A stretch of 64,000 nt of DNA, from sequence record PP047753, one strand, 5' to 3'. The stretch comes from Escherichia phage KEP3. This document shows positions 12,260-15,259 of this stretch, piece after piece. The notes beneath the pieces are model-generated. The model saw nothing but the letters and a program-made list of their open reading frames with translations. It searched no databases and was not told the DNA's origin. Position 1 is the first letter of the stretch. Every line of letters starts with the position of its first letter. A program made the position numbers and the translations under genes.

Positions 12260-14041
12260 TTAAAGCTGCTTGTCAATATTATTTCGAATATCACCAAGAG
12301 TTGTGTAGCCGAACTGCTCAGAGTCACTAAAGACTAGGCGTAAAGCACAAGCTGGGTGTTCAAGTGCATCTGCAAAGCTCTGGAACCCATAGCCATCTAC
12401 AGCTTTCAGATTTTCACCATCCCACATAGGTGCTACACCACCAAAAGCAGACTTCTTAACACCACTATCTGTTTTAGGGTCTTTTGCGAGCATAATCTCT
12501 TTACCACCAATGCTTGCAAGAGTTGCTTTGACAGCAAATGCAAAGGTGTCACGAGTCATGTACTGGTAAGTGTAAGAACCTACACCAAACACTACGTTAG
12601 AGCTTGCAAAACCCATTTCATACAAACGCTTCAGGATTTCGTTTGCACGTTCCAACGTGATAGAGTCACCATAAATAAGGCCAATGTGCTCATCCAGTAC
12701 TTTAAAACCTTTAGAGTTGATAGTTCCTCCAAAGATGTTATACAGTGTCTTGATAGCTCCATCAATCTCCGCTACAGGACGTGTTACAACGTTTGCAGAA
12801 CCAACCATATAAGCATTTTTCAACAGCACTGTATCAGCAACTTCAAAGCCTTCTCTGTCAACAACCATTTCGTAACCTTCTGACAGTAGCCATCCAGCAA
12901 TACCATAATTGATGTTTTCAAGCTTCATGTTCAGAACAGCATTCAGCATTGTGTCGCTGGCTTCCAGCTTACTTAGGTGTTCGTAATAAGCCTTTTTAGC
13001 ACACTCTAAATGGATTGCTTTGTATCCTGTGACAATATGTACAGGGTCTCCAGAATCAGGACGAATTACCAGTTTGCCATCACGTTCCATAATCTCTTTA
13101 CGGAGTTCTGGCAATATGACTGATACAGTTCTCCAGAAGTTATAAGTATCTGAAACAACACTTGCAATACCAGTTGGGTAAGTTTCTGTTAAGAAACGAC
13201 GGAAGGTTTGTAACTCACCTTTAAAGCGTCTTTCTTCTTCAATCAACTCGTTACCACCTTCCCAAGCAATGTTTGCACACATTACAGAATGTTCAGTGGC
13301 TGGTACAGAACTACCAATATCAGAGATTGGGTAGGACTGTCCATAGATGCGTTTAGCTGTATACACAGCAGGGAAGCTATCAGTCCCTTTAAAGCTGGTT
13401 AAGTGGCCTACAGCGTTAAATGCGTCATCAGTAAAGCCAGACATACCACGCATAGCAAAGTCATGGCACTGATAAGGTAAATGCAAGTCGTTGTCACAAG
13501 TAAGGTCAGCCCACTTCTTACAGATACGTTTGTAGTGCAATGCAATAGTTGCAATGGTACAAGCCTTCCAAATCTCAGCAGAGAAAGCATCTTCCAGATA
13601 CCCCGCTACCCAATGGAAACCTGAAACAGTGTTCTGGAAGACAATCATTGGCACACGCATAGGGACAACTGTACCTTCTTCTACAGCGTAGACTTCGACT
13701 GGTAGATAACCTAAGTCGTGGAGTGCTTCCCAATGTTCTCGACCAATAGCATCTTTACCCAGAACACCGTTCATGACTTCTAAGATTTCGTCAATTGCTT
13801 CTTTTTTGTCACGTTCGAAGAATGTGGCGTTCCAGTGGTCTATCAGGTAATCTTTAACAAAACGTTGAATACCGAAAGCAACTACACCATCAATTGCTAA
13901 GGGGCTGTTAAACCATTTGTCACTACGTGGTGTCAGGTTGAACATCAAGTACTCTGTTGCGCTAGGATACTGGTAGATGTGACCAGATTTGTAAGCATCT
14001 GCGTTTAAACCTGCTGGTACTGCATAAAGTGATTTAGTCAT
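12260..14041 (-). CDS. nicotinamide phosphoribosyltransferase family protein (Nampt/NadV-like; candidate Namat of NARP1)
   Basis: N-terminal NADAYKSGHIYQYP matches the Nampt D-x-YK-x-H block; 593 aa; adjacent to Prs-like gene. Confidence 0.7.
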   Translation of the reverse strand: MTKSLYAVPAGLNADAYKSGHIYQYPSATEYLMFNLTPRSDKWFNSPLAIDGVVAFGIQRFVKDYLIDHWNATFFERDKKEAIDEILEVMNGVLGKDAIGREHWEALHDLGYLPVEVYAVEEGTVVPMRVPMIVFQNTVSGFHWVAGYLEDAFSAEIWKACTIATIALHYKRICKKWADLTCDNDLHLPYQCHDFAMRGMSGFTDDAFNAVGHLTSFKGTDSFPAVYTAKRIYGQSYPISDIGSSVPATEHSVMCANIAWEGGNELIEEERRFKGELQTFRRFLTETYPTGIASVVSDTYNFWRTVSVILPELRKEIMERDGKLVIRPDSGDPVHIVTGYKAIHLECAKKAYYEHLSKLEASDTMLNAVLNMKLENINYGIAGWLLSEGYEMVVDREGFEVADTVLLKNAYMVGSANVVTRPVAEIDGAIKTLYNIFGGTINSKGFKVLDEHIGLIYGDSITLERANEILKRLYEMGFASSNVVFGVGSYTYQYMTRDTFAFAVKATLASIGGKEIMLAKDPKTDSGVKKSAFGGVAPMWDGENLKAVDGYGFQSFADALEHPACALRLVFSDSEQFGYTTLGDIRNNIDKQL

Positions 14042-14062
14042 CTTTTAATCTCTCTCAAAAAT

Positions 14063-14078
14063 GGGGCTTTTAAGCCCC
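14063..14078 (-). terminator. intrinsic terminator-like hairpin between Prs-like and Nampt-like genes
   Basis: GGGGC..GCCCC stem then ATTTTT in minus orientation; may act as attenuator. Confidence 0.4.
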
Positions 14079-14088
14079 TATAAAGTTT

Positions 14089-14970
14089 TTAATCAAGGTT
14101 TGCTACAGTAACTTGGCTATAATGTGTTAAGCCACGGTCTTTAGCTTCCCCTAAAGAGTTTGTAGTGTAGATGTGGTCAATGCCGTTGTCAAGAAGGTTT
14201 TCAACATCTTTAGAGAAGATACCATGTGTTACATAGAGTTCCACACGTTTTGCACCTGCTTCACGAAGATGTTTAGCTGCTTCTATGAAGGTTCGTCCTC
14301 CATCACAAATATCATCCAGAATCATGACGGTTTTATCTGTCAAATCAACATCATCAAGGATTCGCATACCAGTAATTTCACCAGTCTTAAGGTTACGCAC
14401 TTTAGACATTGTGATGTATGGTTTATCCACCTCTTTAGCAGTCTCTGCAATCTTCTTAGCAGCACCTGCATCTGGGGCTACTAAGTAATCAACCAGTGGG
14501 TCATTTGCATAGTGGACTGCAATTTCCTTTTGAGGAATACTCTGGAAGCAGTTAAACAGGTTATCTGGTACATAGCTGTGAGGGTCAACTGCACAGACTG
14601 CATCAAAACCCATTGCATTAACCTGTTGTGCAAACACTTTCAAAGCTGCTGCATCACCTTTAAACATGTGACGGTCATAACGTGCATTTGGCAAATAGTA
14701 AAAGATAATGGTCTTCATAGCAAACTTATGAGGTACTAAATCATCAATTGCTTCTTTAGCAAGTGCCACAGCAAACAATGTGTCTTTATCATAACCTTTT
14801 ACAATCATAATCACATTGTTGATGGATGATGCTGCATAAGCAGTAAAATCAACAAACTCTGGCGAAAAGTGTCCACCAATCTCACCAGAAGGAAATTGGA
14901 TGATGTTAAACTCTTCTTCATGAGTTCCTTTAGTTGGTGAATGAACTGTAACACGGATAGATGTTTTCAT
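14089..14970 (-). CDS. ribose-phosphate pyrophosphokinase (Prs)-like protein (candidate Adps of NARP1)
   Basis: PRPP-binding-like loop ILDDICDGGRTF and VAPDAGAAKK; start set at ATG 14970 (GAGAGA RBS) rather than TTG 14988. Confidence 0.65.
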   Translation of the reverse strand: MKTSIRVTVHSPTKGTHEEEFNIIQFPSGEIGGHFSPEFVDFTAYAASSINNVIMIVKGYDKDTLFAVALAKEAIDDLVPHKFAMKTIIFYYLPNARYDRHMFKGDAAALKVFAQQVNAMGFDAVCAVDPHSYVPDNLFNCFQSIPQKEIAVHYANDPLVDYLVAPDAGAAKKIAETAKEVDKPYITMSKVRNLKTGEITGMRILDDVDLTDKTVMILDDICDGGRTFIEAAKHLREAGAKRVELYVTHGIFSKDVENLLDNGIDHIYTTNSLGEAKDRGLTHYSQVTVANLD

Positions 14971-14980
14971 AGTTTCTCTC

Positions 14981-15259
14981 TCAATCAAAAGTTACGTTTG
15001 TTACTGCCATTGCAGATTTGCATTTTGCAGGGTCTACAACGTGATAAAGTACACTACAGTTACCTGTGCTGTCTGGTACAGGTTTAACCCATTGTTGCTT
15101 GACAGTTGGTTCTCCTAAATCTTTGTAAGAGCCATCTGTAAAATTGTTTACCATCTCAAGTGCAATTGGTTCTGGGACATGACCACGTATCATGTACATT
15201 TCACAACCATTACCACCCTCACTGACTAGTGGTAAAATCTCCCACTTCTCTTTAGCCAT
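14981..15259 (-). CDS. hypothetical protein (92 aa)
   Basis: ORF in operon context. Confidence 0.45.
   Translation of the reverse strand: MAKEKWEILPLVSEGGNGCEMYMIRGHVPEPIALEMVNNFTDGSYKDLGEPTVKQQWVKPVPDSTGNCSVLYHVVDPAKCKSAMAVTNVTFD

Follow-up and report, generated by a model that had tools for sequence, protein, structure and literature searches.

A pair of neighbouring minus-strand genes in Escherichia phage KEP3 (sequence record PP047753), of which a 64-kb stretch was analysed (64,000 nucleotides, hereafter the window), very probably constitutes a minimal NARP1 (NAD+ reconstitution pathway 1; NAD+, nicotinamide adenine dinucleotide) module of the FelixO1-like phage type, a reading to which we assign a probability of about 0.93. 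The upstream gene, adps, encodes a putative ADP-ribose pyrophosphate synthetase resembling phosphoribosyl pyrophosphate synthetases (PRPS; 14089..14970, minus strand, 293 aa from an ATG at 14970), and the downstream gene, namat, a putative nicotinamide ADP-ribose transferase resembling nicotinamide phosphoribosyltransferase (Nampt; 12260..14041, minus strand, 593 aa). The module is already known and is ordinary for the FelixO1-like group; this feature can be regarded as catalogued, since the Adps of phage wV8, which is 96% identical to the window protein, appears in a published Adps table. In the present analysis we established the orthology of the pair to the operon of phage Bas63, the conservation of the residues that published work assigns to catalysis and specificity, the Namat fold and the absence of the known accessory genes.

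NARP1 was defined by deleting genes 79-80 of Bas63, which plated ~20-fold worse on SIR2-HerA cells and left NAD+ unrestored once the two genes were gone (Osterman et al., bioRxiv 10.1101/2024.02.11.579819). The effect requires neither host pncC nor nadR and persists in the double deletion host, and ADP-ribose pyrophosphate (ADPR-PP, m/z 720.010) was seen only in wild-type-infected cells carrying the defence system (bioRxiv 10.1101/2024.02.11.579819). As the protein of Bas63 "did not purify well", enzymatic work was carried out on homologues from the Bacillus phage SPbetaL1, whose Adps yields ADPR-PP when supplied with ADP-ribose (ADPR) and ATP, with no measurable product in the Prs-activity control (ribose-5-phosphate and ATP according to the legend), and whose Namat converts ADPR-PP and nicotinamide to NAD+, a preference for ADPR-PP over 5-phosphoribosyl 1-pyrophosphate (PRPP) having been shown for SPbetaL1 Namat only (bioRxiv 10.1101/2024.02.11.579819). 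The SPbetaL1 pathway is abolished by the substitutions K162A in Adps and R306G in Namat, and the supplementary tables of the study list FelixO1, wV8 and Bas63 both as carrying Adps with a Namat neighbour and as carrying an "Adps-associated" Namat (bioRxiv 10.1101/2024.02.11.579819). When the two genes are co-expressed, type I Thoeris, DSR1, DSR2 and SEFIR are cancelled and type II Thoeris is not. The defences that an earlier note on this DNA had listed as countered (Thoeris, DSR, SIR2-HerA and SEFIR) agree with the NARP1 paper, where the first two are type I Thoeris and DSR1/2. By analogy with these published orthologues and homologues, from which the chemistry and the anti-defence phenotype are taken, SIR2-HerA, type I Thoeris, DSR1/2 or SEFIR would cleave NAD+ to ADPR and nicotinamide, Adps would take the beta-gamma pyrophosphate from ATP and attach it to ADPR at the terminal ribose, yielding ADPR-PP, and Namat would swap the pyrophosphate of ADPR-PP for nicotinamide, giving NAD+ directly without nicotinamide mononucleotide (NMN) or host salvage enzymes.

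A listing of open reading frames (ORFs) over 10-18 kb of the window revealed the PRPS-like gene (14089-14970) and the Nampt-like gene (12260-14041) on the same strand and separated by a gap of 47 nt. The adjacency and both ORFs had been described correctly in the earlier note, as had the peptides quoted in it: VMILDDICDGGRTFIEAAK is part of the 14089..14988 ORF, GLNADAYKSGHIYQY belongs to the 12260..14041 ORF, and both ILDDICDGGRTF (the PRPP-binding loop) and NADAYKSGH are present in the two translations. The start of adps given there required correction from 14988 to 14970. The longest adps ORF (14089..14988, 299 aa) begins with a TTG, but this codon overlaps the end of the upstream ORF, whose stop codon is at 14983-14981, and the relatives are mostly annotated with 293 aa (882 nt), as in Bas63, DE17, Sf13 and one of the two FelixO1 annotations. 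The ATG at 14970 has GAGAGAGAAACT just 5' of it, and the same purine-rich Shine-Dalgarno-like element (GAGAGAGA) precedes the namat ATG. The position of the TTG inside the upstream ORF, the length in relatives and the element shared with namat thus make the ATG at 14970 the most likely start.

Both family assignments are far beyond chance. The Nampt-like protein falls into PHROG 448 ("nicotinamide phosphoribosyl transferase", E 7e-202) and NCBIfam PRK09198 (468 bits), with Pfam matches to NAPRTase (E 2e-34) and NAMPT_N. For the Prs-like protein the assignments are PHROG 619 ("ribose-phosphate pyrophosphokinase", E 3e-98) and the Pfam families Pribosyltran and Pribosyl_synth; the one NCBIfam model whose cut-off it clears is that of the broad TIGR01251 subfamily (126 bits against a cut-off of 113), and it scores below the cut-offs of all PRPS equivalogs (44-107 bits against 296-536, the best being 107 against 296), with no full-length match, which sets it apart from canonical PRPS (Prs). 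The locus thus combines an Adps-clade PRPS homologue with an adjoining Namat homologue on the same strand of a phage genome. A megablast search with the locus returned 258 phage records, 230 of them covering at least 80% of the query and the best at 96-97% identity; nearly all belong to Felixounavirus or other Ounavirinae with Escherichia, Salmonella, Shigella and Citrobacter as hosts, and these matches place the window in Felixounavirus.

The closest link to experiment is provided by Bas63 (Escherichia phage JohannRWettstein, MZ501086.1), itself a Felixounavirus with 90% nucleotide identity to the locus. Window Namat is identical to bas63_0080 (gp80) at 579 of 593 positions (98%, no gaps) and window Adps to bas63_0079 (gp79) at 234 of 293 (80%), and the gene order is the same in both phages: rIIB, rIIA, small ORFs, bas63_0080, bas63_0079, small ORFs, NrdG and NrdD. 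The Bas63 genes are annotated as a nicotinamide phosphoribosyltransferase of 593 aa (bas63_0080) and a ribose-phosphate pyrophosphokinase of 293 aa (bas63_0079). With this conserved synteny, and with a genus that is represented in the published tables, the NARP1 assignment that the earlier note had drawn from gene pairing now stands on orthology to the founding Bas63 operon and on the sequence features by which Namat differs from Nampt, and Adps from PRPS, as detailed below.

The structure of Adps from Vibrio phage ICP1 was reported in apo, substrate-bound and product-bound states in September 2026 (PMC13586617), and it provides the residues against which the window protein can be read. In ICP1 Adps the acceptor is bound by F18, R87, F92, H121, D161, D212 and D213, the catalytic K185 lies on a beta-hairpin, a remodelled PP-loop (C215-S220) binds the ATP phosphates, and the alpha11-alpha12 C-terminal module of PRPS is lost, a signature of the family (PMC13586617). 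Activity is abolished by K185A in the ICP1 protein (PMC13586617) and by K162A in the SPbetaL1 protein (bioRxiv 10.1101/2024.02.11.579819). MAFFT alignment of Adps from the window, ICP1, SPbetaL1, a Pseudomonas phage, Vibrio phage eugene, Bas63 and Sf13, together with BLASTP mapping, placed K190 of the window protein (14401..14403, minus strand) at the position of ICP1 K185 and SPbetaL1 K162; the BLASTP alignment to SPbetaL1 Adps, at 35% identity over 194 residues, sets K162 against K190. This lysine is accompanied by a PRPS-like fold, to judge from the Pfam and TIGR01251 matches. Positions mapped from ICP1 are occupied in the window protein by F26, R97, H131, D167, K190, I199, D219, D220, I221, C222, D223, G224, T227 and F228, among them the conserved acceptor residues F26, R97, H131, D167, D219 and D220. 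The PP-loop, DDICDGGRTF (residues 219-228; 14287..14316, minus strand), which corresponds to the ATP-donor and distal-ribose site, shares D, D, I, C, D, G and F with the ICP1 segment D212-F221 (DDICDGAASF), with S replaced by T. Changes from ICP1 fall at F92 (M102), V195 (T200), C197 (M202), A218 (G225), A219 (R226) and F223 (E230), and the methionine in place of F92 occurs in Bas63 as well, as all 20 mapped positions are the same in the window and Bas63. The window protein extends to about position 290 of 309 in TIGR01251, or about residue 290-293 of the 318-residue human PRPS1, and because it ends there the alpha11-alpha12 module is absent.

For Namat, crystal structures of the SPbetaL1 protein (9w5w and 9w5x) show a Nampt-like catalytic core with an adenine "selectivity clamp" (PMC12774641), which pairs a variable loop (SCL) with a conserved helix (SCH) of consensus GS-X-phi-X-phi-X-phi-TRD (PMC12774641). 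These structures are the best Protein Data Bank (PDB) sequence matches of window Namat (E 4e-128), ahead of the NadV of Haemophilus ducreyi (E 1.6e-104) and of NAMPT from mammals (about 1e-41). The Nampt-like core is conserved at Y17, F195, D221, H251, R327 and D329, and 17 of the 21 SPbetaL1 ligand-contact residues are identical in the window protein (D15, Y17, F195, R198, D221, A248, H251, R327, D329, G458, D459, G488, S489, Y494, T496, R497 and D498), R327 being the equivalent of SPbetaL1 R306. The four changes, from SPbetaL1 to the window, are R40 to K42, S190 to A196, A362 to S460 and F392 to Y490, the last of which retains the aromatic ring, so that the clamp residues Y490, Y494, T496, R497 and D498 are either aromatic or identical.

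The clamp itself is recognisable in both of its parts. The SCH (residues 488-498; 12548..12580, minus strand) reads GSYTYQYMTRD in the window and GSFTYQYNTRD in SPbetaL1, against GAQTYQRNTRD in H. ducreyi NadV and GGALLQKVDRD in Xanthomonas Nampt, and at the level of these sequences the motif separates Namat from true Nampt. The SCL, TPRSDKWFNSPLAIDG (residues 37-52; 13886..13933, minus strand), is identical to that of Bas63 and has K42 followed by W43 (TPRSDK42-W43); in general the loop contributes a stacking residue that is either Arg at position 3 or the residue after a Lys or Tyr, and Bas63 Namat was described as having Lys at the third loop position, the next (fourth) residue being modelled as stacking on the adenine (PMC12774641). 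An AlphaFold2 model of window Namat built with 51 homologues reached a mean predicted local distance difference test score (pLDDT) of 94.1 and a predicted template modelling score (pTM) of 0.92, and its best PDB matches by Foldseek were the Namat structures (9w5x, target-normalised TM score 0.95). We infer that the window copy of the pair is active.

Several points weigh against the NARP1 reading. The in vitro enzymology was conducted with the SPbetaL1 and ICP1 proteins only, which are insert-less homologues 30-46% identical to those of the window, and the insert-bearing Felixounavirus type is backed by in vivo evidence only, the Bas63 proteins being those that "did not purify well". The N-terminal 90 residues of Adps are just 64% identical to Bas63, though the protein is of the wV8 type (96% overall), and several ICP1 ligand-contact residues are changed in window Adps, Bas63 having the same changes. 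Moreover, Namat also uses PRPP in vitro, so some NMN synthesis is possible. This last activity bears on classical PRPP-dependent salvage, in which Prs would make PRPP, Nampt (NadV) would make NMN and host NadR or PncC would complete the route to NAD+. Such salvage is what every database annotation of the pair names, and it accords with the in vitro synthesis of NMN from PRPP by Namat homologues, which proceeds about half as fast as that by human Nampt, and with H. ducreyi NadV being the second-best PDB relative. We nevertheless consider it very improbable, as the phenotype of the Bas63 pair (98% and 80% identical) persists in a pncC nadR double deletion host, ADPR-PP is detected in vivo, and purified SPbetaL1 Adps formed ADPR-PP from ADPR and ATP but no measurable product in the control with ribose-5-phosphate and ATP. 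The window proteins themselves point the same way, since the clamp has Y490 and Y494 where true NadV has Q and R, and the Prs-like protein falls below all PRPS equivalog cut-offs and is without the C-terminal regulatory module.

Two further explanations concern the role and the state of the module. The pair might mainly be a housekeeping NAD+ booster for phage replication with only incidental anti-defence effects, as could be suspected from its position among nucleotide-metabolism genes (NrdG and, by synteny, probably NrdD upstream) and from its near universality in the genus, 223 of 253 matching records covering at least 80% of the query. The published observation that ADPR-PP formed only under an active NAD+-cleaving system, the identity of the substrate ADPR as a product of defence, and the report of the plaque or growth defect of the deletion mutant on a SIR2-HerA host all speak for a defence-related role instead, and we hold the housekeeping explanation to be highly unlikely. 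It is also conceivable that the window copy is functionally altered or inactive through an Adps N-terminal allele different from that of Bas63, residues 1-90 being 64% identical with saturated synonymous sites; the ratio of nonsynonymous to synonymous divergence (dN/dS) below 0.2, the identity of all mapped ligand residues, including F26 and R97, in both alleles and the wide distribution of the allele (wV8, DE17 and dune), always in intact form, leave this explanation with a negligible likelihood. We conclude that a minimal NARP1 module is by far the best account of the pair.

Known extended NARP1 operons encode one of two additional enzymes: Adpp, a Macro-domain phosphatase that acts on ADPR-1''-phosphate and counters aRES, or RyDEP, a glycosidase with a RyR domain that converts cyclic ADPR signals to linear form. 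No Macro or RyR (PF02026) domain was detected in the eight flanking ORFs (seven small ORFs and rIIA) by Pfam at E values up to 1 and PHROGs, and because no such gene was found the window module should not handle aRES-derived ADPR-1''-phosphate or cyclic ADPR signals. NARP3, which consists of PnuC-like and NadR-like proteins, was dismissed as unrelated to the Adps/Namat pair.

Divergence from Bas63 is distributed unevenly over the two genes. For namat, dN is 0.011 and dS 0.27, and for adps dN is 0.135 and dS 0.86; both genes are under purifying selection (dN/dS 0.03-0.18, and at most 0.27 in any segment). The divergence is concentrated in adps codons 1-90 (window 14700-14970), where synonymous changes have reached saturation and the proteins are 64% identical, against 95% in Adps residues 181-293 (95-99% for the 3' third within the genus) and 98% in Namat. 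In their adps 5' half, the window, wV8, DE17 and dune form one allele group and Bas63 and FelixO1 another, and this pattern of sequences points to an ancient division of the 5' half into two alleles, with a recombination breakpoint within adps. We rejected positive selection as an explanation for the N-terminal divergence: the low dN/dS throughout and the saturation of synonymous sites between the allele classes point to old alleles and recombination, not to diversifying selection.

As the earlier note had pointed out, the Nampt-like protein is about 100 aa longer than its short relatives (593 aa against 491 aa in SPbetaL1 Namat and ~495 aa in short homologues). The excess resides in two insertions relative to SPbetaL1, one of ~14 aa at residues 258-275 and one of ~72-77 aa at residues 340-427. 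Insertion site 1 (13217..13270, minus strand) is a helical extension that appears as a gap in the HMMER alignment to 9w5x, and insertion site 2 (12761..13024, minus strand) is predicted to hold a compact alpha/beta subdomain of ~88 aa. In the full-length model the site-2 insert has a pLDDT of 93-97 and the order strand-helix-helix-helix-strand-strand-helix-strand-helix, and when modelled alone from 23 insert sequences it adopted the same fold (pLDDT 91.3, pTM 0.80). Domain prediction on the extra residues, proposed together with the suggestion that an extra domain might be present, thus yielded a confidently folded subdomain, at least in models, which Bas63 Namat also has. As Bas63 Namat carries it with near-identical sequence, the insert is compatible with NARP1 function. 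No structural relative of the subdomain was detectable, and it was not discussed in the literature found.

Over 51 homologues, all of which carry the Namat-type SCH motif, site 1 ranges from 7 to 45 aa (window 21) and site 2 from 22 to 100 aa (window 94). At site 2 (window Namat residues 334-427) three metagenomic homologues (P0097, P0099 and P0120) have a 97-aa insert of unrelated sequence, and others have 26-65 aa. From this sequence comparison, site 2 is an insertion hot spot across phage lineages, occupied by at least two unrelated sequence families. That the site-2 insert is a functional add-on and not neutral decoration appears doubtful to us; if it were, it could serve in regulation or sensing, or as protection from an inhibitor of the host. 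The homologues also include ~496-aa chromosomal proteins from Klebsiella michiganensis, Cronobacter, Kosakonia, Erwinia and others (P0069, P0072, P0073, P0084, P0104 and P0113) that carry the clamp motif GS[YF]TYQYNTRD, and by this motif they may represent bacterial NARP1 rather than NadV. Bacterial NARP1 has been reported for Paenibacillus (NAR 2026 paper).

The 47-nt spacer between the two genes holds a hairpin, in agreement with the earlier note, which had seen nothing else there. The element, GGGGCUUAAAAGCCCC followed by AUUUUU (14063..14078, minus strand; GGGGCU-UAAA-AGCCCC), was terminator-like in a terminator consensus scan, and the folding energy of a 71-nt stretch around it is -15.7 kcal/mol (z = -2.9 relative to shuffled sequences). 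Bas63, DE17 and the Mooglevirus Sf13 have it with hardly a base changed, and from its sequence it may be a weak terminator, an attenuator or an RNA-stabilising element, or may have no role. A stronger terminator-like hairpin, with a 10-bp stem and a T-run, lies 3' of namat (12225..12248, minus strand). The adps-namat spacer (window 14042-14088) is also a polymorphic homing-endonuclease site, which is empty in the window, Bas63, DE17 and Sf13. In FelixO1 (ORF305; HNH_3, E 9e-20), dune (dune_29) and many other relatives, a 163-aa HNH homing endonuclease is encoded exactly between adps and namat, where its gene takes the place of the hairpin (L004:1992-2483 in FelixO1 and L002:3297-3788 in dune).

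A sigma-70-like promoter match in the adps 3' end (14164-14192, minus strand; TTGACA-17-TACACT) could allow transcription of namat independently of adps. Another match (TTGACA-16-TATGAT, 11/12) is located at the namat 3' end (12249-12276, minus strand). The excess of promoter matches in the region is modest (34 against 23 +/- 6 in shuffles). Directly upstream of adps are two small conserved ORFs (15252-15767 and 14981-15259, both minus strand; PHROG 3500 and 4726) whose start and stop codons either overlap or directly adjoin, an arrangement suggestive of co-transcription with the NARP1 pair. A transcription unit comprising the two small ORFs and the pair may begin at a terminator-like hairpin at 15807-15785. 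The 171-aa upstream ORF has a weak HNH-like match (PHROG 2214, E 4e-4; motif HHKPVTKGGEHHCANW). On the other side, Bas63 and DE17 have a 345-nt ORF directly downstream of namat (bas63_0081, 114 aa, without a Pfam domain; L001:3603-3947) that is found neither in the window, where the junction is at ~12204-12207, nor in dune, so that a small gene next to this anti-defence operon varies among relatives. Farther upstream, 18008-20152 (minus strand) is a single uninterrupted 714-aa ORF that by synteny should encode NrdD, and the annotation of Bas63 NrdD as two joined pieces would imply an intervening element there. In the whole window there were no tRNA genes and no Rfam family at the gathering threshold, and the GC skew changes sign at ~33-44 kb, a part in which the plus strand carries the large ORFs.

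The main value of these results is correct annotation, as the public records of the genus still describe the two proteins as "ribose-phosphate pyrophosphokinase" and "nicotinamide or nicotinate phosphoribosyltransferase". With a NARP1 module, resistance is predicted to NAD+ depletion by systems based on SIR2, TIR and SEFIR; no resistance to aRES is predicted because Adpp is absent. The annotation thus bears on choosing FelixO1-like phages for therapy or biocontrol.

Compared with known systems, window Adps shares with class I PRPS/Prs the fold and the FxxGE, RxDR, DPH and DD motifs, but it is without the C-terminal filament and allosteric module of those enzymes. NARP2 (Nampt and Nmnat/NUDIX of KVP40) and bona fide Nampt/NadV (H. 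ducreyi 9ke8 and human NAMPT) have a homologous Nampt fold and nicotinamide chemistry in common with window Namat, whereas they use PRPP, make NMN, have no Adps partner and have no aromatics at clamp positions 3 and 7. With NARP1-AP and NARP1 with RyDEP the window shares the core Adps and Namat pair, and differs in having no Macro or RyR gene in the flanking ORFs scanned. ICP1 Adps is ~31% identical and resembles the window protein in its PRPS-like two-domain architecture, in the catalytic Lys and the residues for the acceptor, in having a DDICDG PP-loop and in lacking the alpha11-alpha12 module, the differences being in the donor-site hydrophobic and lid residues F92, V195, C197, A219 and F223. 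SPbetaL1 NARP1 has the same two-enzyme logic, catalytic core and clamp motif at 46% identity over 483 aligned residues for Namat and 35% over 194 for Adps; its Namat (491 aa) is without both insertions, with a 13-residue loop, GDPEAKDELVRKG, where the window has residues 340-427, its clamp loop has Arg40 where the window has K42 and then W43, and its Adps PP-loop is DDLSSFGGTF as opposed to DDICDGGRTF. Bas63 NARP1 differs from the window in carrying the other old allele of the adps 5' half (the window being of the wV8 type) and bas63_0081 downstream of namat, and matches it in genus, synteny, gene order, both Namat insertions, the Adps active-site residues and the intergenic hairpin.

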